DNA of 64,000 bases. It comes from a virus. This document shows, piece after piece, positions 2,206-40,315 of this stretch. The stretch is taken from the IMG/VR virus record IMGVR_UViG_3300042923_000502, positions 32,001-96,000 of that record; one strand, given 5' to 3'. Within the stretch, counting starts at the first letter, position 1. The number at the start of each line of letters is the position of its first letter. Position numbers and translations under genes: made by a program. A model generated the notes under the pieces. It saw only the letters and a program-made list of their open reading frames with translations. It was not told the origin of the DNA and ran no database searches.

Positions 2206-3230
2206 AGAAAGCGCTTTCTTGGGAAATAAGTTGATTTGACGCCATTTGCAAACGCTTACATTTTAAAAAAGAGCGATTATTTCCCAAAACGCATGAATAA
2301 ATATGCATAAAAGTAGCATATGTAATCGCTTACATGCATACTTATTCATCCATACACACAAATGAGTGATAAAATGAGGATAAATCGCACATATCTAATA
2401 AATAGATGAATTATCATTTTCCAATCTAAATATGATATAGATTCAAAATCACTGATTGAAAACGCTTTCATTATACATATATATCCATATTAGTAATATA
2501 AAGTGTTATCTGACAAATAATGTTTAAATGGATATATATGTAAGCAAAACATACCCATAATGACTTACATTGTCTAGGGAATAGAGAATCATAAAAACGT
2601 TGTCACAAGGATTGTAAGCCGCTTTAATCACGTTCAATAGTGCATCTAATACCCATGTTAGGGTACACATATTGAACGTCTTAGAAGGGCAAATAAAGCG
2701 CTTACATTTCAATCGTATGTAAGCCATAAAAAATGTAAATATTTTCAAAATGAATATTTATGCATAAAAATGTTTCGGATGCATACCCGAAAATTTTTCC
2801 GAACATTAAAAAAGTCTTATGTATCAAGGCTTTGTGGCACTTACTTTCTGATAGTGACATTCATAAGCAAAAGTTATCACTATGATAAAAAAATCAAAAG
2901 TCCTTATGTAGCAAGGGATTGCGTTATTTTTACCAATATATGTATATACATTAAAAAATCTAATTGTGTCAATATTGTGAACGAATTTTAAAATTTATTG
3001 AAATACGATATTGACATTTTAGAATCATTTGATCCATCATTTTTAAAACACGAACATTATGACCGATTATGGCACAATATATAGTCAAAATCCGAACATT
3101 AAGCCATTTTAGCCTTTTTAGCTTAAAAAATGAACTATAATGCGAACATAAATTCTCATATTGACACCTAAAATATGGATATTGTAAGCGCTTACTTTCT
3201 ACTAAAAATTGTCAATTGTAAACGCTTACA
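2206..3230. promoter_or_regulatory. Cluster of cre (CcpA/LacI-family)-like 14-bp operators
   Basis: AGAAAGCGCTTTCT 2206, TGCAAACGCTTACA 2247, TGTAATCGCTTACA 2321, TGAAAACGCTTTCA 2457, ATAAAGCGCTTACA 2693, TGTAAGCGCTTACT 3183, TGTAAACGCTTACA 3217. Confidence 0.6.
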
Positions 3231-3304
3231 TGCAAAATAATACGAACATATGGGAACATAATGTGTACATTTTGTGAAAACGGGCTTTTCAATGCTTTAT
3301 ACAT

Positions 3305-3333
3305 TTGCATACATTCCTATTACTTTGTAATAT
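3305..3333 (+). promoter_or_regulatory. sigmaA-like promoter at start of early region
   Basis: TTGCAT-17bp-TAATAT; composition becomes purine-rich right after it. Confidence 0.55.
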
Positions 3334-3339
3334 GGACAT

Positions 3340-4120
3340 ATCAACACGGCAACACGGCAACGAGAGCAACGAACGAACAACCCAACATTAAAAGAGGTTG
3401 AGCGTAGCAAGTGCGGACGACGGAAGCTACCCACACGCGAATAAGTGAGCAAAAGTAAGTCGCTAACTTATGGTAAGTGTGAGATAAAACGAATCAAAAA
3501 TGCTCACAAGGCTTGTACTTAGCGCAATGCCTAATACATGCTAAGGTGAAGTAATCACGGTTTAATGGGACTAGAAAGGGGAATGCAACCCAATAAGGGA
3601 TGTATGAGGAAAACAAGGTTTTGCTAAGTCTCACCTATCCTCACTAATACATGTGATGCAAAAAGATGGTTCTTTGAAAACTTAAAAGGTTTATGCCATA
3701 CCCAAAAAGGCATACATTGTATGAATTTAATCTCTAGTCTAATCGAATGGTTAAGACAATGAGGTAAGAAAATTTCTAGTAATAGTGAAGCGAATTGTCC
3801 AATGGAGACAATGAGCGCACATGAGCGGAAAAGCGTAACGCATTGCATACGTGAAGTGTTCATAAACTAGGAAAAGATTATTGCCTTATATGTATGAGAA
3901 TCTTAGACGAATTGGTTAACATTTATGTTAGCCAAGTGCGATTAAATAGCGTGTCAACGTTGGTCATACAATGTAAAAATCATCCTTTAATCATCCTAAA
4001 GGCGTTGCCTAAGATGCTATGGAGTACATATGTATTGTGTAGCATCTTGGACAACGTTGTAAGCAACTTACAAATAGTAGGTTACTTACAACGTTGTACA
4101 TACAACGAATAAAAAAATGG
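3340..4120 (+). ncRNA. Candidate long structured leader / ncRNA
   Basis: ~790 nt between promoter and first RBS with no RBS-led ORF; several stems (GTGAGCA/TGCTCAC, CTTAGC/GCTAAG, TATGCC/GGCATA, long hairpin 4051-4097). Confidence 0.4.
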
Positions 4121-4132
4121 AGTGATTAAATT

Positions 4133-4792
4133 ATGCACCTTCCACAAATTAAAGTACCCGATATGAAAACGGTTATCAATGTTCCGATTCTTTTGTCCAC
4201 TAAAGAATTTCCGATTTTGTCGGAATATAACTCTTTCAAGGCTACCGGAGAAGTATTCAAGAATGCCGGAGACAATAGCGCCTATAATCTAGCACCTATT
4301 CACGCATGGGTTAACATTGATCAATTACAAGGTGAAATGGGAGCGGCATCACGGTTAGGTTTTGGTATGTATGATTCCGACTTGGACAAAAAGAACGGGT
4401 TGTATTACACAATGAAGCTAGATGAAAAGGGAGAAGGTCGGCACGTAAACGGCACAATAACATATACTATTGTGGCGGTTATGGTTAAAGGCAAAAAATA
4501 TTCCGTGAAGAAAGATCACAAGTTACCGAACGGAACAACAATTCAAACCAAATTCGAGTTCTCTTACAATGGTAAGAGCGCGAAAAATTCCACACTTTTT
4601 AAGCTTTTGCGCAAGCTCATTGCAAACGGGTTGTTACAATTTGACAAAACAACTCACTTGGAATTGCTTGGAAAAGTTGACAAAGAAAAGAAAGACGAAA
4701 AGCCCGCAAGTGTGGACATTCCGCAAGCCCCAAAAGGTAAGAGACGTAACAAAAGCGCAAGCGCGGAAGAATCAAAAGCCGCAAATGCTTAA
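4133..4792 (+). CDS. First early protein, unknown function, basic C-terminal tail
   Basis: 219-aa ORF, RBS GGAGTGA. Confidence 0.85.
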   Translation: MHLPQIKVPDMKTVINVPILLSTKEFPILSEYNSFKATGEVFKNAGDNSAYNLAPIHAWVNIDQLQGEMGAASRLGFGMYDSDLDKKNGLYYTMKLDEKGEGRHVNGTITYTIVAVMVKGKKYSVKKDHKLPNGTTIQTKFEFSYNGKSAKNSTLFKLLRKLIANGLLQFDKTTHLELLGKVDKEKKDEKPASVDIPQAPKGKRRNKSASAEESKAANA

Positions 4793-4887
4793 TTTAAAAT
4801 TTAAAAATGATAGTAGTTAACAATTAGTAACTATGCTAATTGTTAACTATTCTTGATTTTTAAATTAAATGTAAAGGATGGTAAAAA

Positions 4888-4971
4888 ATGGAAATTAAAA
4901 AATGGAAATTAAAAAATGACAAGCCATGCCGCAAATGTGGCAAGCCGGGTTGCCGTTGTTCTTTACTCTAA
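4888..4971 (+). CDS. 27-aa Cys-rich microprotein
   Basis: RBS AAGGATGG; MEIKKWKLKNDKPCRKCGKPGCRCSLL; fills the slot between hairpins 1 and 2. Confidence 0.6.
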   Translation: MEIKKWKLKNDKPCRKCGKPGCRCSLL

Positions 4972-5052
4972 TTTTTGTAAGATATGGTATATAACACAAC
5001 TATTGTTATATACCAAATTGTTACAAAAATTTACAAAAAAGGATGATAAAAA

Positions 5053-5328
5053 ATGGAAAAAATTATCAAAATTGGAAATATTGTTATTTATGAGAAACTT
5101 TGTATGATAGATTTTTGGGTTGAATCTTCTATCGGTCGAAAAGATATGACACATAGCGAACTATACAACTTGCTAGTTGATTGCGACCAATGGAAAGTAA
5201 GAGATACAAGCGGCTTCATAACCTTTTGGCATGGAAAAATAGAAGTAACCGCATTTGTTAAGGAACGCGCAACAAGGGCATATTTTAACCCGGAATTAGT
5301 AGAAACAAATGCCGATTTTGCGGTATAA
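5053..5328 (+). CDS. Early hypothetical protein
   Basis: ORF with AAGGATGA RBS between hairpins. Confidence 0.8.
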   Translation: MEKIIKIGNIVIYEKLCMIDFWVESSIGRKDMTHSELYNLLVDCDQWKVRDTSGFITFWHGKIEVTAFVKERATRAYFNPELVETNADFAV

Positions 5329-5412
5329 CAATTTTTGGAAGAACTAGCATATAACATTAATTAAGTTATATGCTAACTTGTTTCAAAAATTTAACAAAAG
5401 GATGATAAAAAA

Positions 5413-5796
5413 ATGGAAATAAATCTAAGTTTTAGCGAGTTTCAACAAAAAGCGAGCATTTCCCAATTAATGGAAATTTTCAAAAAATTGGAAGAAAAAC
5501 AAAGTTTTTTAAACTTTCCATTTGAAACAATGAGAATTGAAATAACACTTTCCTTTAATTATTACAATTACATAAAAAAAGGAAAAAAAGTTATATCTAG
5601 TAACATTTCTTTGTTAGTCGATTTGCATCATAGAATAAATAACAATTCTTGGCACATGGATTGGATAAGATTGGATAATATTACATTAACTAGTTCACAA
5701 GTAGAATATTTTAACAATCTTGGCTTTACATTTGAGAATGAAGTTAAACAAGTCGCTAACAATGAAAATAGTCTATCAATAATTGTAAAAGATTGA
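5413..5796 (+). CDS. Early hypothetical protein
   Basis: ORF with AAGGATGA RBS between hairpins. Confidence 0.8.
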   Translation: MEINLSFSEFQQKASISQLMEIFKKLEEKQSFLNFPFETMRIEITLSFNYYNYIKKGKKVISSNISLLVDLHHRINNNSWHMDWIRLDNITLTSSQVEYFNNLGFTFENEVKQVANNENSLSIIVKD

Positions 5797-5858
5797 AAAC
5801 ACGAATATTAGTTCGTGTTTTTTCTTGTTTTACAATTAAACTAAAAAGGATGATAAAA

Positions 5859-6350
5859 ATGGAAATTATGAAACAATATGCTAATTTAAAAATTGCTTAT
5901 GAAAGAGCGAAAGAAGAAGATAAAAATAGTATTAAGGATGAATTAAGGACGTTTCTTTATAACAATCCAAGCATATTATTTCCAATGATTGGTAATAAAT
6001 TATGGGAATATATAGGTGACTATGATCACATAAAAGAGGTTTTACAAGGTGAAGAGGAAAGGGACAAAGAAGAGGGAATAAACGAAGGCATGGTCTATTA
6101 TGATGCTACTATCGACTATACCGCAAAAGCTTTAGAAGCGGTTTTACGAATGGTTTTAGAATGGCACATCGAAAGCAATTTTAAATATGTTTCTTTTGGG
6201 CAAACTTACGTGAGCTTTTGGATTTATGCCGAAAAAGAAAATAAAACAAGATTTAACATTGAAACGGATATTTTACACATCATGGAAAATGAAATAAATG
6301 GTAAAAATGATTATGAAATGGTAATTGATGAAAGTGAATATATAGTATAA
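5859..6350 (+). CDS. Early hypothetical protein (acidic)
   Basis: Start moved to ATG 5859 after AAGGATGA RBS. Confidence 0.8.
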   Translation: MEIMKQYANLKIAYERAKEEDKNSIKDELRTFLYNNPSILFPMIGNKLWEYIGDYDHIKEVLQGEEERDKEEGINEGMVYYDATIDYTAKALEAVLRMVLEWHIESNFKYVSFGQTYVSFWIYAEKENKTRFNIETDILHIMENEINGKNDYEMVIDESEYIV

Positions 6351-6430
6351 TTTTTGTAAGATAGGCAATATAAGTAAAATTTACTTATATTGCTAATTGT
6401 TACAAAAATTTAAAAAAAGGATGATTGCAC

Positions 6431-7021
6431 ATGAGAGAAGTTAAACCATTTGAAAAAGTCGGAGAAATTAGGAATTCTTATGTAACATACAAATATTACG
6501 ATTATACCCAATATTCTAATCATAAAGATGAAATGTTAAAAAATGGGTATAGAGAAATAAACCAAATGTCATTAGAAGAAAATGACATTTGGTGCAAATT
6601 TGTAGAATACAAGGAAATTCCATTCCATGAAAGAAATTTTTCTAATTTAGATTGGGATAATAACGAAAGTGAATTGCAAGAAATTATGGATACTATGGCA
6701 AGCAATCCGCTTCAATGGGTAATCCCAAGATTTGGAGCAAAAGCGCGGCAAACAATGGGCGAATTATTTAAATACAATTACAAAGTATTTTATGAAGTAT
6801 GCGACTTATTAATAACACCAATTATGGAATCACATGGAGACTATGAAATATTTGGTGAAAATTTATTTAATGTCATTTTGTCAAATGTTAACAAATACGG
6901 TATTTTAGAAAATGACAATTATAAAATGCATCTTTCTAATGAATACGGTGTAACCGTCGAAACCGATTATTATAGAGGTGGTACTTGGGGAAGCTTTACA
7001 ATTGACGAAAGCGGATACTAA
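6431..7021 (+). CDS. Early hypothetical protein
   Basis: ATG 6431 after AAGGATGA RBS. Confidence 0.8.
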   Translation: MREVKPFEKVGEIRNSYVTYKYYDYTQYSNHKDEMLKNGYREINQMSLEENDIWCKFVEYKEIPFHERNFSNLDWDNNESELQEIMDTMASNPLQWVIPRFGAKARQTMGELFKYNYKVFYEVCDLLITPIMESHGDYEIFGENLFNVILSNVNKYGILENDNYKMHLSNEYGVTVETDYYRGGTWGSFTIDESGY

Positions 7022-7108
7022 CAATTTTTGAAAGAAAGAGCATATAACACAAACGGTTATATGCTCCATTGTTTCAAAAATTTAATAAGTAAAAGGAATG
7101 ATTGTAAA

Positions 7109-7372
7109 ATGATGGTAGTAATAGAGAGACAGGAAAGAGTAGAAGTCAAGTCAGTGATTGGTGCAAGATTACGTAAGATGATTAAAAAGTTGCCGCAATA
7201 CATCAAAACTGATATTTTTAAAATGATACATAATACATCAGGTGATTATGCTTGTTACGGTGAGACATATGTTGAACTACATTTCAGCAAGCAATGCCTG
7301 TCAGCAATTACATTGGATGCTATAAATATTGATGATAATACATCAAAACGTTTTACGCTTATCATCGAATAA
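7109..7372 (+). CDS. Early hypothetical protein
   Basis: ATG after AAGGAATGA RBS downstream of hairpin. Confidence 0.75.
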   Translation: MMVVIERQERVEVKSVIGARLRKMIKKLPQYIKTDIFKMIHNTSGDYACYGETYVELHFSKQCLSAITLDAINIDDNTSKRFTLIIE

Positions 7373-7462
7373 GACATAAAATTTGAAAAGATAGAAAGAT
7401 ACGAATATAAATTCGTATCTTTTAATTGTTTTCAAATTTAACAAAAAAAGGATGATAACACA

Positions 7463-7699
7463 ATGGGAAATAGAGAAGTTATTGCTTGCTGGGGAATTTC
7501 AAATGTTGCGTCATTAAACGTATGGGAAATGAGATCAGATGAAGCAATGTTGGTGGGAATTAATGACGATGAACCTGAGTGGTGCGAAATTGAATTTATA
7601 CCAAATGAAGAATCTTTAAGTGATGATTACGAAACAGTTAATGTAATTAATTTCCATGGAAATATATACCGACTTGACGAATGTATGAGAGTTAGATAA
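7463..7699 (+). CDS. Early hypothetical protein (acidic)
   Basis: RBS AAGGATGA. Confidence 0.8.
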   Translation: MGNREVIACWGISNVASLNVWEMRSDEAMLVGINDDEPEWCEIEFIPNEESLSDDYETVNVINFHGNIYRLDECMRVR

Positions 7700-7801
7700 T
7701 TCAGTGACTCATAGTGCCATCTATACAACTATATATAGATGGTATTATTGATTTACCGAATAACACAAAATCATATAACGCTTGAAAGGATGTATACCAA
7801 C

Positions 7802-8113
7802 ATGAAAACTTATGCAATACATGTAAGAATGAAGCCTATTCAAATTGTAGAAGCTTCTAACCGCGCTGACGCTATTGAAATTATCCGTAAAAAGTTTGTC
7901 AATGCTTTTATTACAAAGGTAGAAAAGACACAGAAAAAAGCGCTTTGGTGTGATCGTATTGTCCTTGTAACGCCTAATAACACAAAGTACAAGCCTTTCA
8001 CAGTTACATATTTTGAATATTGTGACGAGAATGCTTTACAAGTTGCCAGAGACAATGGATATGACAAAATCGGCACAATAGAAATTTTTAATTCGGTTAC
8101 AAATGTCATATAA
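7802..8113 (+). CDS. Early hypothetical protein
   Basis: ATG 7802 after AAAGGATG. Confidence 0.75.
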   Translation: MKTYAIHVRMKPIQIVEASNRADAIEIIRKKFVNAFITKVEKTQKKALWCDRIVLVTPNNTKYKPFTVTYFEYCDENALQVARDNGYDKIGTIEIFNSVTNVI

Positions 8114-8139
8114 AATAACATCATGAAGGAGAATTTCAC

Positions 8140-8346
8140 ATGAAAAAAATCCAAATCAGAAATTTGTTTGATGTTGCCGTTGAAATGAAATTGTCAGCGA
8201 AATATTATGCGGTTATCTTATTTCAACTTAACAAAGAAATGGCAATAAAACTTAGACGGCAATGGATAACCGGACGTATAACACAAATTGAATATAGTGA
8301 CAGATTGGTTGATTCCATTTTAAGAGAAGTACAGTCTATCAGTTAG
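8140..8346 (+). CDS. Early hypothetical protein
   Basis: RBS AAGGAG. Confidence 0.75.
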   Translation: MKKIQIRNLFDVAVEMKLSAKYYAVILFQLNKEMAIKLRRQWITGRITQIEYSDRLVDSILREVQSIS

Positions 8347-8452
8347 TGAATGACAATGACATTAAGCCATAACACGGCTATATATGTAAGGCTTAATGTT
8401 ATTAGTGAGTTACTAACTACAAATTATCAATATATAAAAAGGATGGTTAAAT

Positions 8453-8746
8453 ATGGAAATGAAGAAGAATTCTGATGTGATTAAGGCGTTTCTCATGGGA
8501 TACAAGGAAGGACAGGCAAACAATCTTAGAATTGAAGAAAGAGCAGGAAGAACAGCTTTATTAAACTTTGATACAGTTTTGGCAGAAATTATGGATCACG
8601 GCAAAGATATTCATATTAACAAGAGTAATTACGGCAGAAGCACTACACGAATTCAGAACGAATTGATCCGCAAGGTTGAAGAAGACAAGAGTATCAGAGT
8701 ATTTTACTACTTTGGTATTGACAAGCACAGCAAAATATTGGTTTAA
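8453..8746 (+). CDS. Early hypothetical protein
   Basis: RBS AAGGATGG. Confidence 0.8.
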   Translation: MEMKKNSDVIKAFLMGYKEGQANNLRIEERAGRTALLNFDTVLAEIMDHGKDIHINKSNYGRSTTRIQNELIRKVEEDKSIRVFYYFGIDKHSKILV

Positions 8747-8758
8747 GGAGAGAAGACA

Positions 8759-8914
8759 ATGACAAAACGAACTCAGAAAGAATTATTGGAATGGGACTTG
8801 GAAAATGCGCGTGAATCATGGACAAAATCAGAAACTCAAGAACAATCAGCAATGTGGTATTCAGAGATGAAGAAAATTGAATCTCAGATTGATGAAATGG
8901 AGACACAGAAATGA
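8759..8914 (+). CDS. 51-aa hypothetical protein
   Basis: Found by hand; RBS AAGGAG; MTKRTQKELLEWDLEN... Confidence 0.65.
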   Translation: MTKRTQKELLEWDLENARESWTKSETQEQSAMWYSEMKKIESQIDEMETQK

Positions 8915-9072
8915 CAGAAAAATATTATCAAATACAAGCTGATCTAAGGGAAGCAAATAAAAGCGGAGACTTAAAAAAGATTAAGCGACTCAGAAACAAG
9001 TTAACAAAGTGGCAGATTGCTTATGGAGCGTATGCACCTATAACACAAGAAAATTGCCACAAGTATGATTGA
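8911..9072 (+). CDS. 53-aa hypothetical protein
   Basis: Found by hand; ATGA overlap with previous gene; stop abuts hairpin. Confidence 0.65.
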   Translation: MTEKYYQIQADLREANKSGDLKKIKRLRNKLTKWQIAYGAYAPITQENCHKYD

Positions 9073-9163
9073 TTCAGTGAATGATAGTCCTCTATAACAT
9101 ACAAGTATAGAGGACAATTGATTTATTGAATTACAAATAATATAAAAAAGGATGATAACACGA

Positions 9164-9361
9164 ATGTCAATGACCAAACGAGAGATCAAAAAAGCATCAG
9201 AATTAGTTCCAAACTTCATTAAAGTATTTGAGAACGATGTGCAAGAAGACATTCATACAGACGCAAAAGAAATGACATATGAAGAATTTGAACTGATTTG
9301 CCGATTGCATGAAAAGCTAACACATGCTATAAACTATGTTGACCAGAGTATTTTCAAATAA
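9164..9361 (+). CDS. Early hypothetical protein
   Basis: RBS AAGGATGA. Confidence 0.7.
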   Translation: MSMTKREIKKASELVPNFIKVFENDVQEDIHTDAKEMTYEEFELICRLHEKLTHAINYVDQSIFK

Positions 9362-9451
9362 TTCAGTGATTCAAAGTGCGTTCTATAATACATATTATAG
9401 AGCGTATTATTGTTTTACCGAATTACACTAAATTAAAAAGGATGATAACAC

Positions 9452-9739
9452 ATGAGCAAACTTTATAAAGGAAATGTAAAAACATCGGACGTACATTATC
9501 AAGAGGTTATTCTTACAGCACAAAGAAATGGTAATGACATAAACGGAAATAGCAAGTACAAGGTTCAGGTTTGGATGATTGTAAAAGATGATCACAATAT
9601 GGAATCAGGTACTCTATGGAGTCCTGTGGTAAAAGGATATAGAAAAAATAAGTATGACGAATACACATTAGTATCATCTGACCTTGATCATGATGTTACA
9701 CGCTTTATTGAAGCTTTTGAAAAAACGGTTAGAGCTTAA
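9452..9739 (+). CDS. Early hypothetical protein
   Basis: RBS AAGGATGA. Confidence 0.8.
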   Translation: MSKLYKGNVKTSDVHYQEVILTAQRNGNDINGNSKYKVQVWMIVKDDHNMESGTLWSPVVKGYRKNKYDEYTLVSSDLDHDVTRFIEAFEKTVRA

Positions 9740-9828
9740 TCAGTGATAAAAAGTGTCTTACATGATCATATTATGTAAGGCATTATTGTATTACTGATTT
9801 TAAATTACAATGAAAAGGATGATATAAC

Positions 9829-10257
9829 ATGACAACAAAACCATTTACAACCAGAGGGCAAATTGTAGCGGTAACACTTGACAACAATGGTAAAGAGCTT
9901 GCAGTAAGTGTATGCATGAATCCAGACAATATCAGCGAAGCCATTTTGGAAGCTTCAAACGGTGATACGCTTATAGTCAAGTGGGAACGTATTACATTTT
10001 GCAGAGACTATAAACCTTTTGAATTGAATCGCCTTAACAAAGGAGATAATGTTCAAGGCAGAGAAGTTTTGAAAGTAAAAAACTTTCCGCATGATCATCA
10101 CTTACAACTTGTTCTGTGCAAGTGGAAAGAGTTCAGATTCGTTGTATGGCAATACAACATAGAATCAGAAGGTTTTAACTTCGGATACTATTACACATCA
10201 ATAGAAGATGCTGAGGAAAAATTTAAAGAACGTATGGAATACTATGACATCAAGTAA
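9829..10257 (+). CDS. Early hypothetical protein
   Basis: RBS AAGGATGA. Confidence 0.8.
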   Translation: MTTKPFTTRGQIVAVTLDNNGKELAVSVCMNPDNISEAILEASNGDTLIVKWERITFCRDYKPFELNRLNKGDNVQGREVLKVKNFPHDHHLQLVLCKWKEFRFVVWQYNIESEGFNFGYYYTSIEDAEEKFKERMEYYDIK

Positions 10258-10349
10258 ATTCAGTGATTCAAAATGCCTTATATAAACCATATTATATAAG
10301 GCATCATTGCTTTACTGAATAACATTACATTACAAAAGGATGATAAGTT

Positions 10350-10553
10350 ATGTACAAATATGAAAAAGAACTGATCAAGATTGTGGAGAGTGTAGGTGAT
10401 GGCAGAACTATTGCTGATCTTTCGGAAAAAAGCTTTAGAAACCGCGAATTTGAAAGCTTTGAAGCTCATGAAATTTATGATATTGCAAGAGGTTCCAGTC
10501 ATTTCAGATACGATGAACGGACTCAGAAGGTTTACTTAGTTAAAAATTCATAA
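10350..10553 (+). CDS. Early hypothetical protein
   Basis: RBS AAGGATGA. Confidence 0.75.
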   Translation: MYKYEKELIKIVESVGDGRTIADLSEKSFRNREFESFEAHEIYDIARGSSHFRYDERTQKVYLVKNS

Positions 10554-10626
10554 TTCATATGTTGCCTTTTACATATAGTAAAGGGCAAAAATGTATTATG
10601 AATTATATAAGAAAGGATGATATTAA

Positions 10627-11016
10627 ATGTCAGATAGAAAAAAATATAGCTTCAATTATAGCTATGATGAAGTTGTATCGTTTAATCATAAATTGTTGAA
10701 CGACATTTCAGATCCAGAGTATGACTACAAATTGACAACTGACTTCAAAGATGCAATTTATCTTTTGCATGATGCCAAAATGATTTCAGGCGGCAAAGCA
10801 GAAGCAGGTTTTCGGCATATTGATCATCGTATGATTGAATGCACAATGGAGATTGACAGATACAATGACAATTTTTGGGATGAAGTCCATGCCAGATTTA
10901 AAATTGTACGCCTTGTACCAGAAAGTGAATATGCATTGATCAAAAAAGGTCAGGTTTTAACACGCATTCAGGAATATTTAATTAAAGAAAATGGGTATAT
11001 AATAGAAGAATATTAA
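10627..11016 (+). CDS. Early hypothetical protein
   Basis: RBS AAGGATGA. Confidence 0.8.
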   Translation: MSDRKKYSFNYSYDEVVSFNHKLLNDISDPEYDYKLTTDFKDAIYLLHDAKMISGGKAEAGFRHIDHRMIECTMEIDRYNDNFWDEVHARFKIVRLVPESEYALIKKGQVLTRIQEYLIKENGYIIEEY

Positions 11017-11034
11017 AAGAGAGGAAGATATAAA

Positions 11035-11241
11035 ATGGCAATGATTCAGTCACACTATGAGATCAACGTTTCACTTAATGGTAGGCACTTATTTGCGACA
11101 GCGGAGAGAAGTTGCGTAACACAGGACGATTTAAATAAGGTATTAGACATATTTGTTGCCAAGTTTCCAAAATCAGAAGGATATAAAATATCTTACTCTC
11201 ACATTAAATGTGAAGGAAGATCAAAGGAAGTCAGAAACTAA
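11035..11241 (+). CDS. Early hypothetical protein
   Basis: RBS GAGGA. Confidence 0.75.
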   Translation: MAMIQSHYEINVSLNGRHLFATAERSCVTQDDLNKVLDIFVAKFPKSEGYKISYSHIKCEGRSKEVRN

Positions 11242-11333
11242 TTCGGTCAATGATAGCACCTTGTATAAACATATTATATAAGGTGTAATTGATTCACTGA
11301 ATTAACAAATAAATTAAAAAAGGATGATTAAAT

Positions 11334-11993
11334 ATGTTTATGACAAAACAATATCCGACAGTTTACGAGAAGTTTGGTGATGTCAATCCTATTGAACATG
11401 GCGGAGGTCTTTACACAGAAATTTCCGATGGCGTATTCGATATTATTCATATCGAACCAGATCAAAACAGATGTGATCTTGGTTGGTTTAATGTGGTTCA
11501 AGTTGACACAAACGATTCTTGGATTCAGGAGAAGAAAGAAGGCTTGTTTTCGACTTATGATATGAACGAATCACAGAATAATAGCATCGACTTTGCTCTT
11601 GCCTGCATCGGATATTTTGGAATCGAAAATTTTGGTGGAGATCAAAGTTACGAAATGCTGATTGACAAAAGGGATATTGAAGAGTCATTGAATGAAGTTA
11701 TTACAGAAAACTTTATCCAAGATGATAACACTATCAGATGCAAGGTTATCAATTATTTCGATGTATGGGGCAATCAGAAAGATGGTTATCAAGTTAATAA
11801 CATGTGCAATGAAGGTGAAATCACAGTTCCTAAAGATGCATCCAACAGAGATGTTGTCGATGCATTAAAGAAAATGGGATTCTTCAAAAAACATGTTCGT
11901 ATGAATATGTGTCAGTTTGAAAGTGCATATATCGACGTATGGGTAATTAACGATTCAAAAGGAAAACCTGTTTGTTGCGTTGAGCCACTATAA
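11334..11993 (+). CDS. Early hypothetical protein (probably two domains)
   Basis: 219 aa, RBS AAGGATGA. Confidence 0.8.
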   Translation: MFMTKQYPTVYEKFGDVNPIEHGGGLYTEISDGVFDIIHIEPDQNRCDLGWFNVVQVDTNDSWIQEKKEGLFSTYDMNESQNNSIDFALACIGYFGIENFGGDQSYEMLIDKRDIEESLNEVITENFIQDDNTIRCKVINYFDVWGNQKDGYQVNNMCNEGEITVPKDASNRDVVDALKKMGFFKKHVRMNMCQFESAYIDVWVINDSKGKPVCCVEPL

Positions 11994-12087
11994 CATTCAG
12001 AACTAAATACTATGTCTTTCTACTCATATAGTAGGAAGACATAAATTGTTTTCTGAATAAAAATAATATTGCAAAGGATGATAAACA

Positions 12088-12303
12088 ATGCGTATAACAC
12101 CCGAATACAGAAACCACTTGAAAGTTGAAGGACATAAAGGCACATGGTATGTTGTCGATGAAACTAATCACAATGACCAACAGGTTTATCTGTTGGAGCA
12201 TGAGAAATACGGTGAAGATGTTGCCTGTCTTATTGTTGACAAGGATTTGAATGTTCTGGTTGACGATGTTTGGAATGGATTCGATGATTTAGAGTATTTG
12301 TAA
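12088..12303 (+). CDS. Small acidic protein resembling a domain of Bacillota mobile-element polyvalent proteins
   Basis: GTWYVVDE...LLEHEKYGEDVACLIVD...DVWNGFDDL; family recalled from memory, not searched. Confidence 0.6.
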   Translation: MRITPEYRNHLKVEGHKGTWYVVDETNHNDQQVYLLEHEKYGEDVACLIVDKDLNVLVDDVWNGFDDLEYL

Positions 12304-12329
12304 AATCAAACATCAAAGGAGAATAACAG

Positions 12330-12488
12330 ATGAAATCACTAAAAAGAAGATATTATTGTTCAGCTAAGGACAACAAAGGTCAATTGACACAATTTGAGTT
12401 AGTTGCTGAGAGCAAGAAAGAAGCAGTGCAGAGATGCAAAGATGAATGCAAAAGACTTGATTATGTATTCATGGAAGTAAGCTTATAG
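12330..12488 (+). CDS. 52-aa hypothetical protein
   Basis: Found by hand; RBS AAGGAG. Confidence 0.65.
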   Translation: MKSLKRRYYCSAKDNKGQLTQFELVAESKKEAVQRCKDECKRLDYVFMEVSL

Positions 12489-12579
12489 CAGGTAGTTTCA
12501 GAATTGATTGTGCCTTACATTACAACATTATATGTAAGGCATTAATGAGTTATTGAAACTCAAGAAAGGATGATAAACA

Positions 12580-12798
12580 GTGATTGTTGGATATTATTGT
12601 CACAAAGAAGACAAGGAATTAACAGGATTAAATGTAATGGTAGTATTGAAACATGATAATGGACAATTAGAAGCGTATTGTCCATCAGAACAACACTTTC
12701 CATTGACAGAAGAATATTTTAATGAATGTGTTAGAATAACAAAAGAGCAATATGTCAATGCCAGCTCGTTGTGGACTCCGGCTGAATACTTAAACTAA
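12580..12798 (+). CDS. Early hypothetical protein
   Basis: GTG start after AAGGATGA. Confidence 0.75.
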   Translation: MIVGYYCHKEDKELTGLNVMVVLKHDNGQLEAYCPSEQHFPLTEEYFNECVRITKEQYVNASSLWTPAEYLN

Positions 12799-12821
12799 AT
12801 TAGAAAAGAGGATGATAACAT

Positions 12822-13238
12822 ATGACAAGTCAAAGAAGTGTTGCTGTAGAAAGATTTGAAAAGTTGGAAGAAATGGGATATTCTCACACGGATATTCTTA
12901 ATTACATTCTTTTCAATTGGATGAACGCTGATGATGCATGTGAAAGCCTTGAAGGATTCGCAGGAGACATGGACTTCTCCTTTGAAGAAGATGAAGCAGA
13001 AGAAGGCACAGAAAATGAAATTGAACCTACCTATGAAGTAGGCGACACCGTAACAATAGCAAGTGACAATGAAAATTATTTTGAATACTTAGGAAAAGAC
13101 CTTACAGTAGCCAAAGTTTCAACAAGTATTGAAGATCATCCTGGTTTTGATGACTCAGTAGGAGAAGCCTTGTATGACCTTGAGACGGAAGATGGCGAAC
13201 CTGTACCATTTTCGGTGTATGAATATGAATTGAATTGA
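12822..13238 (+). CDS. Highly acidic early protein
   Basis: Very D/E-rich; RBS GAGGATGA. Confidence 0.8.
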   Translation: MTSQRSVAVERFEKLEEMGYSHTDILNYILFNWMNADDACESLEGFAGDMDFSFEEDEAEEGTENEIEPTYEVGDTVTIASDNENYFEYLGKDLTVAKVSTSIEDHPGFDDSVGEALYDLETEDGEPVPFSVYEYELN

Positions 13239-13334
13239 TTCAGAATAATATACTATGCTCTTTACTCTATATATAGTAGAGAGCATAAATACTTTTCTGA
13301 ATAGAAAAGAATAACATTAAAAGGATGATAACAC

Positions 13335-13715
13335 ATGAGAACAACGAAAAAAGAATTTGTAGCTCAGATTCAAGAACATATTGCAAATAGATTGTCGGAA
13401 GATGAAACAACGGTATTGAGCGAACAGCTGCAAAATGTTATGGATGACTTTAAAGATTGGTATAATCCATATGAGAAGAAATTGACACCAAACAGGCATG
13501 ATGCTCTTAAACATTGGCTGTGGGGTCTTCCATCGTCATTATCTCTTGAGTATCAACACTACAATATCAGTAAGATTCTTAAAAAATGGTTTAATGAGTG
13601 TGGGGAAGAATATAAGGAAATTGGAGATGGCAGAAAAGAAGCTGATTTTTATATGAATTTGGTAATACGCGAATTTAACAAAATGTATAACAAGCATTGC
13701 AAGCAAACGAATTAA
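13335..13715 (+). CDS. Early hypothetical protein
   Basis: RBS AAGGATGA. Confidence 0.8.
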   Translation: MRTTKKEFVAQIQEHIANRLSEDETTVLSEQLQNVMDDFKDWYNPYEKKLTPNRHDALKHWLWGLPSSLSLEYQHYNISKILKKWFNECGEEYKEIGDGRKEADFYMNLVIREFNKMYNKHCKQTN

Positions 13716-13810
13716 TTCAGAATTTTATTATACCTTTTATATTGCAATATATAAAAGGTATAAATACTTTTCTGAATGGAAAGTAAATTTAACGGATAAG
13801 GATGATCATA

Positions 13811-14155
13811 ATGGCATATACTATGCTTACACCAGAAGTTGTTGAATTTCTCTCAAAAGAGGAATTAAAAGGTAAATTAATGACGTTGCGCATGTCTTCC
13901 GTTGCAGACAAGAGAAATACTATTCAATTGTCGGAAGGATTCATTGAATCTGTAAGAGTAAACGAAGAAACAGAAGTTGAAAGAGAAGGATTCAGCATTC
14001 AATTAATGAACAAAAAAGGAGAATTGTATTATAGACCAGAGTGCTTCTTTGGCACATTTGACAATTTTGAAATTAATTCTTATGAAACATCAACAGTACT
14101 TAGAATTAATTACAAAGATCAAAGCTACTTTATTATTAAGATTTACGGCATATAA
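13811..14155 (+). CDS. Hypothetical protein, paralog of next gene
   Basis: LTPEVVEFLS...IKIYGI. Confidence 0.75.
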   Translation: MAYTMLTPEVVEFLSKEELKGKLMTLRMSSVADKRNTIQLSEGFIESVRVNEETEVEREGFSIQLMNKKGELYYRPECFFGTFDNFEINSYETSTVLRINYKDQSYFIIKIYGI

Positions 14156-14179
14156 CACATTAAAAAAAGGGGAATGAAA

Positions 14180-14494
14180 ATGACAGAAAACATAATAACA
14201 CCAGAGATAATTGACTTACTCTCTAGTAAAGATGTAAATGACAAATTAATTACAGTGAGTACATCAACGAATAGATCAAATAGTGTAATTTCAGGATTTG
14301 TTGATAGTATCAAGGTAATTGATGGTAAGGAAATAGTAATTCAGATTGGTGATAAAAATGAAAATCTGATGGGTGAACCGCTTATCTTTAAAGATTTTGA
14401 CAAGATATTTATAGGTACTGATAGCATATGTACCAAACTAAGACTTCAACATTTAAATGGTGATTATTCATTTATTCAAATTTACGGAGTATAA
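14180..14494 (+). CDS. Hypothetical protein, paralog of previous gene
   Basis: ITPEIIDLLS...IQIYGV. Confidence 0.75.
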   Translation: MTENIITPEIIDLLSSKDVNDKLITVSTSTNRSNSVISGFVDSIKVIDGKEIVIQIGDKNENLMGEPLIFKDFDKIFIGTDSICTKLRLQHLNGDYSFIQIYGV

Positions 14495-14591
14495 TTCAGA
14501 ATAACATATGATGCCTTTTACTTGTAATAAGTAGAAGGCATAAATGCTCTTCTGAGCAACAAATAACACCAAGAAAAGGGGAATGATAACC

Positions 14592-14771
14592 ATGACAAAA
14601 GTAGCGACATCAGGAAAAATTAAGACACGAAAAGAGCATACTGTGTCGGGACGTTCCAACGTCACAAACGAAGTATACAAAAGAATATTTACAAGCTATT
14701 CAGAAATGAACAAGTGGGCTGAAAAGAATGATCTTGTAATATTCAACGTTGTTACAAAGGTTATCAAATAA
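14592..14771 (+). CDS. Hypothetical protein
   Basis: RBS AAGGGGA. Confidence 0.7.
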   Translation: MTKVATSGKIKTRKEHTVSGRSNVTNEVYKRIFTSYSEMNKWAEKNDLVIFNVVTKVIK

Positions 14772-14792
14772 CAGATAAAAGGAGATTGAGCA

Positions 14793-15188
14793 ATGACAAA
14801 ACACATTAAATTGAACATTAAGGTAATGCTTAATACGAATTTCGGAAAAGTTCAGATTGGTGAAATTTCATTAAATCCAAGTGTAATGGGAAGCATATCA
14901 GAAGAGTATATTGTAGAGCAATGGTTCAAAAATGTTAATGTAAATGTTCAGCAAATTGCTAGAGTATGGACACAGGCGGAAAACCGCTCTTATCTGTATG
15001 GAGTTCATTATCACAATAACGGAAAAGAACTATATGAATTCTATTATGTTTCAAGAGGTATGCTGTATGATGACCATGGATATTTAGAAGAAATTGAAGT
15101 AGGCGAATTTTTAGGAGACTTGACAACACTCGATCAGGCAACGGCTTTGGATGCGTTTATGGTGAAGATCAAAGAAGAATTGAGTTAA
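14793..15188 (+). CDS. Hypothetical protein
   Basis: RBS AAGGAG. Confidence 0.75.
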   Translation: MTKHIKLNIKVMLNTNFGKVQIGEISLNPSVMGSISEEYIVEQWFKNVNVNVQQIARVWTQAENRSYLYGVHYHNNGKELYEFYYVSRGMLYDDHGYLEEIEVGEFLGDLTTLDQATALDAFMVKIKEELS

Positions 15189-15274
15189 TTCAGAATAATA
15201 TACTATGTCTTTTACTTCTAATAGTAGAAGACATAAATACTCTTCTGAGTAATCATAACAAAGGAGTGGTAACA

Positions 15275-15691
15275 ATGAAATACAAAACGATTGGAACAGT
15301 TAGACTTGCAAAGCGTCTTAAAAACCTTAGCAAAGGTGATGTAATCCTTGACACAGCATTTAACAAATACGCTAACGGTGTAACAAGCTACAGCTTATGC
15401 ATTTGGGAAGTAATCAAGAAACATGTTGATATTAGCCTTATACACAAAGCAGAGATGACTTTCACGCAAAAAGATTGGTATACGTTGACTCTATCTCATA
15501 AAGACGGATACACTTTTAAATTACGCGGTATGTCATCTGGTTATTATGGCGAAGGATCAAGAGCAACAGAAAAAGTTTTGCTTGATTGTGGATTCAGTCA
15601 AAGTGCTATTGATATTATCTTTATCAAAAATAACGAAAATTGGATCATTCGCAAGTTTGCAACAAAGGGAACTAGAGTTCACATCAGATAA
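15275..15691 (+). CDS. Hypothetical protein
   Basis: RBS AAGGAGTG. Confidence 0.75.
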   Translation: MKYKTIGTVRLAKRLKNLSKGDVILDTAFNKYANGVTSYSLCIWEVIKKHVDISLIHKAEMTFTQKDWYTLTLSHKDGYTFKLRGMSSGYYGEGSRATEKVLLDCGFSQSAIDIIFIKNNENWIIRKFATKGTRVHIR

Positions 15692-15705
15692 AGGAGTGAA
15701 GATAC

Positions 15706-15879
15706 ATGATAAAACAATACGTTTACCATAACACAACAACAGATGAAGTCGTAGGGTTCAATGCTAATAGCCTACACCAATCAAAGATCAGAATGAGAAG
15801 GCTATCCAGAGTTCATTTCATCGGTAGCAAGGCAAGTGATTGGAAGTTTGTTAAAACAGATAAAAAAATGAGACACTGA
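15706..15879 (+). CDS. 57-aa hypothetical protein
   Basis: Found by hand; RBS AAGGAGTG. Confidence 0.6.
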   Translation: MIKQYVYHNTTTDEVVGFNANSLHQSKIRMRRLSRVHFIGSKASDWKFVKTDKKMRH

Positions 15880-15888
15880 AAATTATAC

Positions 15889-15916
15889 TTGCATAGTCGG
15901 TAAAATGTGGTATAAT
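15889..15916 (+). promoter_or_regulatory. sigmaA promoter
   Basis: TTGCAT-16bp-TATAAT with extended TG. Confidence 0.65.
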
Positions 15917-16032
15917 AGTAGTTGGCACAAATAAAAGATAAAACATCAGATTGGAGCTTATGCCTTTCACGCAACATATAGTGAAGGGTATAAATGATTC
16001 ACTGATTTAACACAAAGAGAGGATGACAACAA

Positions 16033-16356
16033 ATGGAAGTTTTAGTTATGCCAAACGGTCAAACTGAAATTATCTCCGATGAAAGAGATTTGATTGAATT
16101 TATTGGCAGAGTAATGGGTTATGAAGTAAAGATAATGGTTGAAGAAATTTCCAAGAGAGCAGATAAAGCCGCTATTTTGGCTGATTCGGATTTTAAATCA
16201 TATGAAATGCAAGTTGAAGAAAATCATGATGCCTTTCAGGAATTAGCTGGATTGGTCAATAGGGTTTATGAAGAATTGGATAAGGAAAGAATGAATAAAA
16301 AGAAAATAACATCTATCATTGACAGGATGGATCATGTAGTAAGCAATCAAATCTAA
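16033..16356 (+). CDS. Hypothetical coiled-coil protein
   Basis: RBS GAGGATGA. Confidence 0.75.
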   Translation: MEVLVMPNGQTEIISDERDLIEFIGRVMGYEVKIMVEEISKRADKAAILADSDFKSYEMQVEENHDAFQELAGLVNRVYEELDKERMNKKKITSIIDRMDHVVSNQI

Positions 16357-16368
16357 GGAGTGAATTAG

Positions 16369-16662
16369 GTGGAAGCAATAAACAAATACGAAATAAGCGC
16401 ACACAATTTCACGGAATTCATCTACATGTATACAGTGGACGATCATTTGTATGACTGTGGCGAAGAAATGTATAGTATGTATGAGCTATCTACAGAAATT
16501 AAAGTGCTGGAGTATATAGAGGTACACGGATATAATGGATACGCATGTACTTTCAGCAAAGAAGTTGATGCTATCTTTAGTGATTACATTGCATTCTTAG
16601 AAGGGAAAAACAATAATTATTTTAGCATAGAATTTCCAGAAAATTTAAAAAATAAGGAGTGA
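16369..16662 (+). CDS. Hypothetical protein
   Basis: RBS AAGGAGTG, GTG start. Confidence 0.7.
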   Translation: MEAINKYEISAHNFTEFIYMYTVDDHLYDCGEEMYSMYELSTEIKVLEYIEVHGYNGYACTFSKEVDAIFSDYIAFLEGKNNNYFSIEFPENLKNKE

Positions 16663-16668
16663 TTATTC

Positions 16669-40312: not shown

Positions 40313-40315
40313 AAA

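Follow-up and report, generated by a model that had tools for sequence, protein, structure and literature searches.

Hairpins with features of RNase III-type processing signals punctuate an array of small genes in an uncultured phage of a Gram-positive host

The window, a stretch of 64,000 nucleotides, belongs to the 170-kb genome of an uncultured phage with a Gram-positive host. It contains an array of small co-oriented genes (Table 1) whose products are almost all ORFans. A long promoter-bearing non-coding region precedes the array, the gene of an Rv2179c-like 3'-5' exoribonuclease lies just upstream of this region, and one of the two Xer-like recombinases of the phage is encoded about 8.5 kb upstream, as it is in a relative. 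Only one good promoter was found inside the array, near hairpin h22. The array gaps that carry hairpins measure 62-106 nt and have no space for promoters. Across the array, counted here as 31 genes, a hairpin is present in every gap of at least 62 nt and in none of the gaps of 26 nt or less, and this promoter-poor array is thereby cut into units of one to three genes, as the initial annotation had proposed.

That annotation had described 22 structured hairpins of about 62 nt between positions 4798 and 16006. All 22 were recovered, each as a single two-tier fold of 59-78 nt (median 62-63 nt) with a minimum free energy of -20.7 to -28.2 kcal/mol. For the 20 hairpins tested, folding z-scores range from -5.5 to -10.1 and 0/200 dinucleotide shuffles folded equally well. 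From base to tip, the fold has 8-11 bp of outer stem, then an asymmetric internal loop with weak pairing, then 11-15 bp of inner stem capped by an AU-rich loop, and it amounts to a near-continuous helix of about 26 bp; the internal regions of subfamilies 2 and 3 are larger and less regular than 4/5. The placement next to stop codons and ahead of ribosome binding sites was also borne out. Indeed, 21 of the 22 elements begin between -17 and +6 nt relative to the upstream stop codon, of which the TAA is often part of the stem, the next start codon follows the hairpin end by 19-40 nt, and a GGATGA/GGATGG-type ribosome binding site (RBS) lies downstream of 19 hairpins. Hairpin and RBS together form modules that are repeats of about 95 nt. 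The three subfamilies are real and arranged in positional order along the array. This order had been attributed to serial duplication or cassette accretion; a simpler partial explanation is that subfamily 1, which sits in a CAG/CTG-free zone, is the form of the element that lacks CAG/CTG.

Thirteen of the 22 hairpins served to build a covariance model, with which the complete genome (170,562 bp) was searched. Its strong matches all fall within genome positions 39699-48007 (window 7699-16007), it scores subfamily 1 (window 4798-7439) weakly, and this search yielded no convincing family member outside the array. All copies are restricted to a single 11-kb block of the genome. The same hairpin family is carried by three metagenomic relatives.

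Table 1. Hairpins and associated features of the array (window coordinates unless a relative is named; bits refer to the covariance model)
Feature	Position	Strand	Observations
Array, 32 small co-oriented ORFs	4133..16356	+	27-219 aa
h01, subfamily 1, AATTTAAAAAT outer arm	4798..4866	+	dG -26.5, z -10.1; after 219-aa first gene
h01 ortholog	L005 9520-9588		2 compensatory pairs vs h01
h02, subfamily 1, AATTTTTG	4970..5031	+	dG -22.0, z -5.5; 4/5 internal loop GAUA/AAUUG
h03, subfamily 1	5330..5391	+	dG -20.7, z -6.9
h04, subfamily 1 variant	5780..5838	+	dG -21.8; 5' arm overlaps last 17 nt of upstream ORF
h05, subfamily 1	6349..6410	+	dG -23.7, z -8.5
h06, subfamily 1	7023..7082	+	dG -23.3, z -9.3
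h07, subfamily 1	7379..7439	+	module 85% identical to L005 10348-10434; flanking genes differ
h08, subfamily 2, ATTCAGTGA	7699..7761	+	72.6 bits
h09, longer variant, AGTTAGTGA	8341..8418	+	35.8 bits; dG -28.2
h10, subfamily 2	9070..9133	+	module 90% identical to L005 10084-10171
h11, subfamily 2	9359..9425	+	70.3 bits; stem base is stop codon TAA
h12, subfamily 2	9738..9799	+	dG -27.0; - strand only -11.4
h13, subfamily 2	10258..10320	+	77.8 bits
h14, variant, AATTCATAAT	10545..10604	+	36 bits
h15, subfamily 2	11239..11304	+	two copies in relative, flanking extra gene
h16, subfamily 3, ATTCAGAA	11995..12058	+	splits two ORFs that are one fused 345-aa ORF in relative
h17, subfamily 3	12494..12560	+	module 93% identical to L005 14711-14794; both neighbour genes differ
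h18, subfamily 3	13238..13302	+	72.7 bits
h19, subfamily 3	13715..13777	+	fold, covariance model match
h20, subfamily 3	14495..14556	+	fold, covariance model match
h21, subfamily 3	15188..15250	+	64.2 bits
Sigma-A-type promoter TTGCAT-17-TGgTATAAT	15889..15916	+	read from sequence; unique in window
h22, subfamily 3 variant	15945..16006	+	sole hairpin without adjoining stop codon; about 28 nt downstream of promoter

The hairpins had been said to vary in primary sequence while keeping their pairing, and the check by covariance model and covariation that was suggested for this claim upholds it. Double changes occur at 13 of 18 pairs in a MAFFT alignment and, among 23 sequences from two genomes, compensatory changes of this kind are found at 14/18 pairs with 96.4% of the cells paired, a level reached by 0/500 shuffles, slid controls being paired at 34-50%. 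Between relatives, orthologous hairpins differ by 12 compensatory and 19 wobble changes versus 15 breaks, with a divergence per site of 0.10 in stems and 0.17 at unpaired positions. Inner stems are diverse among paralogous copies and conserved among orthologs. In h22, both arms of the outer stem (ATCAG/CTGAT) differ from those of the ortholog (AATCATA/TATGATT). The promoter segment (15868-15956) is 93% identical to positions 18980-19067 of relative L005. The folding of the top strand is equally well documented: the 22 hairpins contain 46 G-U pairs on the + strand versus 15 on the - strand, A.C/C.A 1x1 mismatches number 3 and 14 respectively, and the + strand is the more stable in 19/22 cases (Wilcoxon p=1.6e-4). 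The 21 hairpins of the relatives repeat this bias (G-U 45 versus 19, p=0.002). A sense-strand G-U bias indicates that the transcript (or top-strand ssDNA) folds, although it could stem partly from strand-biased mutation. Covariation and G-U bias together support the conclusion that the hairpins are sense-strand RNA structures under selection.

The comparison with relatives, also called for at the outset, reveals the gain and loss of whole genes. The closest relative shares only 14 of the 33 array genes; indels at the level of cassettes and two reorderings set the arrays apart, and homology blocks stop at the edges of hairpin/RBS modules (7090/7383, 7380/7465, 9070/9072 and 11243). Modules of the window share 84-93% identity with those of the relative, versus 68-80% for orthologous genes. 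At the h16 site, the continuous coding sequence of the relative corresponds to a 60-codon replacement. In a more distant relative (L012), the homologs of array genes bear that genome's own, different punctuation, namely GC-rich hairpins followed by UUGUGUUGCGG at equivalent positions; the hairpin is accordingly a property of the genome rather than of the cassette.

The precedent initially cited, that of T7 and SPO1, holds at the level of architecture. Sites for B. subtilis RNase III in the early mRNA of SP82/SPO1 are said to have been described by Panganiban and Whiteley in 1983, Mitra and Bechhofer in 1994 and Stewart et al. in 1998. These phages, like the present one, infect Gram-positive hosts and possess an array of small ORFan genes that are early, or here putatively early. 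In both cases the hairpin begins at the stop codon or overlaps it, and combines an outer stem, an asymmetric internal loop and a covarying, variable inner stem with a strong Shine-Dalgarno sequence downstream. Five hairpins of this layout, starting at stop codons, were found in the SPO1 host-takeover module. Their internal loops (GCUA/CAUGG or AAUGG) and those of the present family (GAUA/AAUUG; AAUGG in relative L011) share the 4/5-nt form GNUA/(A/C)AU(U/G)G. The family covariance model did not match the SPO1 hairpins; the likeness is architectural, without detectable homology, and the five are candidate RNase III sites. Copy number and type differ, with 22 AU-rich hairpins of about 62 nt in 11 kb here versus five GC-rich ones of about 45 nt in the 13-kb SPO1 module, and most SPO1 operons have their own promoter and terminator, whereas the present array has almost none. 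In T7, the R1.1 site is restricted to a single cut by its 4/5 internal loop. The T7 early region (R0.3, R0.5, R1, R1.1, R1.3) likewise carries hairpins between cistrons, about 60 nt long and interrupted by an internal loop, on one long early transcript, and their single cut reportedly leaves a 3' hairpin that stabilizes the upstream mRNA. T7 differs in host phylum, in enzyme specificity and in its number of sites (five versus 22), and lacks the stop codon in the hairpin base and the single conserved RBS type within the unit that are seen here. The single downstream cut is documented in PMC1935012: the B. subtilis enzyme cleaves its SP82 substrates, which also contain internal loops, at one position only, on the downstream side. 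According to PMC3896407, Stewart 1998 described RNase III cleavage as one of the regulatory features of the SPO1 host-takeover module, and PMC7509114 credits Hue 1995 with the finding that SP82 mRNA stability is partly due to the RBS.

On these grounds, the hairpin array is most likely a known device in dense form, and the hairpins would, on balance, serve as RNase III-type processing and stabilizing signals in a long early transcript, a reading to which we give somewhat better than even chances. The small-gene array would be transcribed as a long polycistronic message bearing the 22 hairpins. Host RNase III would recognize the helix and presumably cut the internal loop once, on its 3' strand, at (A/C)AU(U/G)G. 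This would leave the upstream message ending in the inner hairpin, which would obstruct 3' exonucleases, and the downstream message starting about 35-50 nt ahead of its start codon, where ribosomes bound to the strong conserved AAAGGATGAT Shine-Dalgarno sequence would shield it. Messages of one to three genes, with individually set stability, could be obtained in this way from very few promoters. As repeats, the modules may double as recombination junctions at which genes are added, removed or reordered between related phages. Two counterpoints deserve mention: a stable hairpin could be enough by itself to protect mRNA, with no part for RNase III, and a ribosome terminating at the stop codon, where the hairpin begins, would open the outer stem.

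The former counterpoint leads to a reading in which the hairpins passively block 3'-5' exonucleases in the manner of REP or intercistronic stem-loops, or else guide RNase Y cuts in the adjoining A-rich single strand and then cap the 5' end of the downstream message against RNase J1, without any RNase III cutting. It accounts for the RNA-level evidence equally well and agrees with the A-rich single-stranded tail after every hairpin and the strong Shine-Dalgarno sequences downstream; speculatively, 3' hairpins would also shield messages from the Rv2179c-like exoribonuclease of the phage itself. A passive barrier, however, requires neither a conserved two-tier layout nor the conserved loop (A/C)AU(U/G)G, which is nevertheless common to the subfamilies and the SPO1 hairpins, and the length of the helix matches the requirement of RNase III; we consider this reading unlikely. 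Weak or factor-dependent terminators, or attenuators metering read-through along the array, are a very improbable alternative. The initial statement that U-tracts are absent stands for the 22 complete hairpins, after which none was found and the next 10 nt are A-rich (5-9 A). It does not stand for the 3' outer arms of subfamilies 2 and 3, which are U-rich (UUGUUUUAC, UACUUUUCUG), and a simple terminator scan (22 found versus 6.8 expected) flags about 10 inner stems as terminator-like; the punctuation of L012 points the same way. Yet the U-rich stretch is set off from the inner stem by two to five residues other than U, the 3' arm of subfamily 1 is A-rich (CAAAAAUU), and 22 serial terminators backed by one internal promoter would shut off the distal genes. 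The data thus support the narrower statement that the hairpins are not canonical terminators.

Three further readings were weighed. As recombination modules in the first place, the units would allow swaps of unrelated genes by homologous recombination, possibly via mini-circles, like the PeSLs of T4-type phages. PeSLs, too, are short regulatory units that recur between the ORFan genes of a hyperplastic region, with gene indels between close relatives and junctions at the units (PMC2839356, PMC4122927), and the gene turnover described above, including the extra gene between two h15-type hairpins and the pair split by h16, speaks for such a role. Junctions at gene boundaries are nonetheless expected anyway, since only intact genes survive; the diversification of inner stems among paralogs reduces shared identity, the opposite of what a substrate needs; and a sense-strand G-U bias is meaningless for double-stranded recombination. 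A PeSL, moreover, consists of a sigma-70 promoter and a working terminator, whereas the present units associate a processing-type hairpin with an RBS and have neither. This chief role is considered quite unlikely, and recombination is regarded as a by-product: the gain and loss of genes at module edges is consistent with recombination of the PeSL kind occurring incidentally. Selfish MITE/REP-like palindromes that spread into spacers and are merely tolerated would explain repeated imperfect palindromes of uniform size, most similar between neighbouring copies, one of them at a place where coding sequence runs on uninterrupted in the relative. We find this highly improbable: target-site duplications are missing (the flanking TAA/TTA is stem), the copies are confined to one block, orthologous copies are more conserved than the surrounding genes, and the h16 replacement is not a clean empty site. 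The attC analogy of the initial annotation did not survive, and a cassette system served by a phage tyrosine recombinase is barely credible. Integron attC sites are imperfect palindromes too, with a stem-bulge-stem layout, a variable centre and structure conserved over sequence, one per ORF in a promoterless array; here the array even follows a promoter-bearing non-coding region, with a Xer-like recombinase upstream. But R''/R' cores (RYYYAAC...GTTRRRY) occur on 0/44 strands, neither recombinase qualifies as an integron integrase (TIGR02249, 23.8 bits versus a cut-off of 265), folding favours the top strand and not the bottom one, and the punctuation of L012 shows that the sites do not travel with cassettes, site type tracking the genome.

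The early arrays of Tsamsa-like Bacillus phages, whose replicative helicase is 40% identical to that of the present phage, offer a further comparison. The genome layout is the same, with leftward genes, a non-coding gap and a rightward small-gene array that includes an ocr-like anti-restriction gene. In the spacers of Tsamsa, however, nearly every gene is preceded by a sigma-A promoter (CGCTTGACA...TATAAT), and a hairpin family is absent. The strategy of the present phage is the opposite one, with few promoters and many hairpins.

The 22 hairpins (h01 to h22) that punctuate the small-gene array of this phage form a real and strongly selected family of sense-strand RNA structures. RNAfold returned a single dominant hairpin of 59-78 nt at each site, with a dG of -20.7 to -28.2 kcal/mol; the 20 hairpins tested gave z-scores of -5.5 to -10.1, and none of 200 shuffles folded equally well. 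From the base upward, each consists of an outer stem of 8-11 bp, an asymmetric internal region with weak pairing, and an inner stem of 11-15 bp (18 bp in h01) closed by a loop of 3-11 nt. The asymmetric internal loop is of the 4/5 type (GAUA/AAUUG) in subfamily 1, and larger asymmetric regions are found in subfamilies 2 and 3. A covariance model of the family (R1) was built on 13 members from subfamilies 2 and 3 only, because a MAFFT alignment of all 22 hairpins misaligned subfamily 1. These members scored 59-78 bits with the model and the variants h09 and h14 ~36 bits, against 14-22 bits for subfamily 1. No convincing match was obtained in the remaining 159 kb of the genome, and Rfam has no matching family. 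All 22 structure-conserved elements of ~62 nt reported in the initial annotation are confirmed by folding.

Gene calling placed 34 genes on the + strand between 4133 and 18921. The described position of the elements, which start at or beside the upstream stop codon and precede a RBS, was recovered almost throughout: 21 of the 22 hairpins begin -17 to +6 nt relative to this codon, TAA being the first paired triplet in many of them, and 19 precede a GGATGA/GGATGG-type RBS, for which AAAGGATGATAA is a common form. From the hairpin end to the next start codon, the distance is 19-40 nt. Genes devoid of a preceding hairpin mostly carry a GGAG-type RBS. A hairpin is present in every gap of at least 62 nt and in none of the gaps of 26 nt or less, and the array is therefore cut into units of one to three genes.

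Features of the hairpin array and of the surrounding phage genome (window coordinates unless stated; L008 and L009 are pieces of the same genome)
Feature	Position	Strand	Remark
Subfamily 1, h01-h07	4798-7439		AAUUUUUG type
Subfamily 2, h08-h15	7699-11304		AUUCAGUGA type
Subfamily 3, h16-h22	11995-16006		AUUCAGAA type
Promoter TTGCAT-17-TGgTATAAT	15889-15916	+	Upstream of h22; sole good promoter inside the array; 93% conserved in the closest relative
CCA-adding/poly(A) polymerase-family gene	41694-42938		
Rv2179c-like 3'-5' exoribonuclease gene	L008:4251-4796 (genome 31251-31796)	+	Just before the non-coding region
Xer-like tyrosine recombinase 1	L008:1256-2335 (genome 28256-29335)	+	
Xer-like tyrosine recombinase 2	L009:1246-2226 (genome 161245-162225)	-	

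The closest relative, IMGVR_UViG_3300047472_000155 (L005) from IMG/VR, is a genome of 166,838 bp with a helicase 73-75% identical to that of the window. Comparison within and between the two phages bears out the proposal that pairing is kept while sequence varies. Even a structure-blind MAFFT alignment contains double (compensatory) changes in 13 of 18 consensus pairs. In an alignment of 23 sequences from this phage and the relative, 96.4% of the cells are paired, double changes affect 14 of the 18 pairs (69 cells), and none of 500 shuffles attains any of five pairing measures; sliding the partner by 1-3 columns, as a control, lowers the pairing to 34-50%. Orthologous hairpins across related genomes show 12 compensatory and 19 wobble-preserving changes against 15 breaks, with a divergence per site of 0.10 in stems and 0.17 at unpaired positions, and the DNA identity of the orthologous genes is only 68-80%. 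The outer stem of h22, for instance, is changed on both arms between the genomes (ATCAG/CTGAT versus AAUCAUA/UAUGAUU). The prediction that the top strand folds, drawn from its G-T mismatches, is substantiated as well. On the + strand, the 22 hairpins comprise 46 G-U pairs and three A.C/C.A 1x1 mismatches, versus 15 and 14 on the - strand, and folding is more stable on the + strand for 19 of the 22 (mean -24.0 versus -19.4 kcal/mol; Wilcoxon p=1.6e-4). The same pattern is observed in 21 hairpins of relatives (45 versus 19 G-U pairs; p=0.002). Composition is not the source of this bias, since the window skews lead to an estimate of about equally frequent G.T and A.C mismatches, although strand-biased mutation could still contribute to it in part. 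It is therefore the sense transcript (or, formally, top-strand ssDNA) that folds. Covariation and the sense-strand G-U bias establish that selection acts on the RNA structure.

The phage itself is rated complete in its IMG/VR record (170,562 bp, of which the window covers bases 32001-96000) and is, judging from its proteins, a large, mosaic phage of a Gram-positive (Bacillota) host. This assignment is based on a UvrD-type helicase encoded just 3' of the array, with 43-45% identity to its counterparts in CP-51 and SPO1-like Bacillus phages, on the replicative helicase (~40% identity to that of Tsamsa-like Bacillus phages, and 50% in the case of an Alicyclobacillus phage) and on one more large protein sharing 56% identity with a protein of Brevibacillus phage Sundance. 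A megablast of the region against GenBank phages gave zero matches, and Pfam, PHROGs and the protein atlas returned no function for the array proteins. The window has a GC content of ~33%, and its genes lie on the + strand from ~4.1 kb on. Several RNA-metabolism enzymes are encoded by the phage. The leftward and rightward gene blocks are separated by a 3.6-kb ORF-poor stretch (520-4130) containing iteron-like 15/30-nt periodic repeats of the ACTATATTGC type at ~1300-1900, and in it AAACGCTTACAT occurs five or six times between 2243 and 3240. This stretch may serve as an origin, as a promoter bank or to halt injection. Two adjoining strong hairpins (4001-4100; dG -32 and -27 kcal/mol) are present in the leader of the gene that opens the array; they are not members of the family and are kept in the relative (L005 8721-8800, -41 kcal/mol). 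The sole duplicated pair in the array is formed by A26 and A27 (13811-14494), adjoining paralogs with 29% identity over 114 aa.

The intercistronic placement of the hairpins is a direct observation. The co-orientation of the genes, the lack of promoters and terminators and the ORFan content of the array suggest that it is a single transcription unit expressed early, the early promoters being presumably located upstream of the first gene, in the ORF-poor region. No conserved -35/-10 was detected within the hairpin+RBS units, and a promoter inside the hairpins (TTCAAA-17-TATTAT matches) was dropped, the -10-like hexamer being unconserved among copies. The initial statement that the elements lack U-tracts and are not terminators stands for the full hairpin, which is followed by A-rich sequence (5-9 A and 0-4 T in the next 10 nt), and has to be amended for subfamilies 2 and 3, whose 3' outer arm is itself U-rich. 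For this reason, a simple scan called ~10 inner stems terminator-like. The inner stem is separated from the U-rich stretch by 2-5 non-U residues, the arm of subfamily 1 is A-rich, and the GC content of the hairpins overall is 17-38%. Intrinsic terminators were rejected, as there is neither a GC-rich stem with an immediate U-tract nor such a tract adjoining the inner or full stem. A ribozyme reading, in trans or in cis, was likewise discarded, since Rfam gives no hammerhead or other ribozyme in 500-17000.

A role of some kind in RNA processing or stability is likely, and processing by RNase III specifically is slightly favored. An asymmetric internal loop between upper and lower stems enforces a single RNase III cut, and the array hairpins, with 23-29 pairs each (563 in all 22), exceed the ~20 bp (about two turns) of mostly paired RNA that RNase III signals need. 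As no rnc gene was found in the phage, the host RNase III would be needed. This enzyme would bind the ~26-bp helix and make a single cut in the internal loop, on its 3' strand, leaving the inner hairpin to cap the upstream mRNA, while a ribosome on the strong, conserved SD would shield the 5' end newly created on the downstream mRNA. A ribosome terminating at the stop codon of the stem base would briefly open the outer stem, and processing could thereby become coupled to translation. More remotely, the conserved UC...GA outer stem and internal loop might be read by a phage factor in place of the host RNase III.

The known RNase III targets of SP82 have internal loops with a single cut in the downstream strand (PMC1935012), and PMC7509114 attributes to Hue 1995 the protection of the SP82 mRNA 5' end by ribosome binding at the SD. 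RNase III cleavage is among the features of the SPO1 host-takeover module credited to Stewart 1998 in PMC3896407. Folding of the intergenic regions of this module revealed five hairpins, after genes 45, 56, 57, 58 and 59, in which GGUUGCUAG precedes and CAUGGAGCC follows a variable stem; we infer that they are the mapped RNase III sites. Like the array hairpins, they begin at the stop codon, with an outer stem of 4-7 bp and an inner stem of 10-11 bp of variable sequence, and their 4/5 internal loop (GCUA or GUUA versus CAUGG or AAUGG) resembles that of subfamily 1, AAUGG being also found on the 3' side in a further metagenomic relative (L011). The likeness is one of design, not of detectable homology, as model R1 had no match in SPO1; it had none either in Bacillus phage Tsamsa or in the more distant relative L012. 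Tsamsa shares the overall layout of the window phage but lacks a hairpin family, and nearly all its small genes are preceded by a sigma-A promoter: its array (L014, 7272-19300) displays a CGCTTGACA-N17-TATAAT/TATACT promoter in nearly every spacer. Tsamsa and SPO1, the cultured relatives compared, have a promoter before almost every gene or operon and follow a strategy of early expression opposite to that of the hairpin array.

The alternative that the hairpins are attC-like cassette boundaries, also raised initially, is unsupported on several grounds and is very improbable. The phage does encode two Xer-like tyrosine recombinases, both present at matching positions in the relative, but these are generic: their best score against the integron integrase model TIGR02249 is 23.8 bits, for a cut-off of 265. 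The RYYYAAC (R'') and GTTRRRY (R') cores are absent from all 44 hairpin strands, and the bottom strand, which is the one that folds in attC, carries the A.C mismatches. Moreover, the sites do not travel with genes. In L012 (JGI 3300037420 contig, 1200-10000; helicase 54% identical), a different punctuation occupies the equivalent positions, namely a short GC-rich hairpin at the stop codon, a conserved GUGUYGCGKUAC and a AAAGGATGGATGA RBS; the homologs of A24, A25 and A26 are each followed by this L012-type hairpin, and the punctuation therefore belongs to the genome, not to the gene. L012 also contains repeated palindromes of the TGTTTCACGTGAAACA type (CACGTG core).

Gene shuffling is nonetheless visible as a pattern. 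In the closest relative, the hairpin family lies upstream of the equivalent helicase (10 strong model matches, plus subfamily-1-type and other hairpins), and four and five members, respectively, occur in two Logan contigs whose helicases have 74% and 58% identity. An IMG/VR DNA pattern scan for the subfamily-2 element and a profile scan of viral contigs retrieved only the already known relative, and a helicase scan of metagenome contigs was empty. The closest relative has homologs of only 14 of the 33 array proteins; gene order is colinear for the most part, interrupted by indels of whole genes and by two local reorderings, and the homology blocks stop at module edges, a module being a hairpin and its RBS. 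Breaks at gene boundaries are to be expected in any case. A7 and its RBS (7090-7383) are flanked by h06 and h07 here, but in the relative by the A13 homolog and an h10-type hairpin. The modules of h07, h10 and h17 are 85-93% identical between genomes despite differing neighbor genes. Two extra genes are found in the relative, the first flanked by a pair of h15-type hairpins, the second located after the conserved promoter and before h22. A20 and A21 (219 and 71 aa; 11334-12303), split by h16 and its RBS, align with the N- and C-terminal parts of a single 345-aa ORF (L005:13677-14714) in which 60 codons replace the h16 module, a gene fission or fusion at a hairpin module. This turnover matches recombination of the kind described for PeSLs (PMC2839356, PMC4122927), namely at repeated regulatory units, which likewise bound the indels between close relatives. 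T4-type PeSLs, however, include a strong sigma-70 promoter, absent from array units with only 19-40 nt from hairpin to start, and their stem-loop is an efficient terminator, which the array units, lacking a U-tract at the inner or full stem, probably are not. The diversified inner stems also argue that recombination is a side effect and not the selected role; cassette shuffling holds as a pattern only. It is doubtful that the hairpin+RBS is a dual-purpose 'linker' peculiar to large Gram-positive-host phages, which would combine an RNase III-type site with a portable junction capturing, splitting (as with A20 and A21 at h16) and reshuffling ORFans, as a promoter-less counterpart of PeSLs with a sequence tuned to local genome constraints such as a CAG/CTG-free entry zone.

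The positional order of the three subfamilies is real. Its attribution to serial duplication or accretion is less secure: neighboring hairpins are the most alike, which may reflect local duplication or conversion, and subfamily 1 tracks a zone free of CAG/CTG. Only three such sites are present in 1000-7000 and none in 3000-7000, versus 14-26 per kb from 7000 on. CAG and CUG occur in the outer stems of subfamilies 2 and 3 and are absent from subfamily 1, which is therefore the version compatible with the depleted zone. This suggests that a CWG-containing target is avoided in a genome part that may enter first. The end of the CAG/CTG-poor zone (1000-7130) coincides with the switch from subfamily 1 to subfamily 2.

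Hairpins of this kind are familiar; what deserves attention is that they are so dense, occur in a Gram-positive setting, have an internal loop like that of SPO1 and are linked to the CAG/CTG-free zone. The substrate rules of RNase III are still poorly defined in Gram-positive bacteria, and more than 40 natural variants of one hairpin in four phage genomes constitute a ready mutational series for this purpose. The hairpin and its RBS also provide compact parts to insulate cistrons in synthetic operons. For the phage, 22 processing-type intercistronic hairpins in 11 kb, one per one to three genes, would be unusually dense, and the comparison with its relatives documents the turnover of ORFan early genes around a fixed punctuation.
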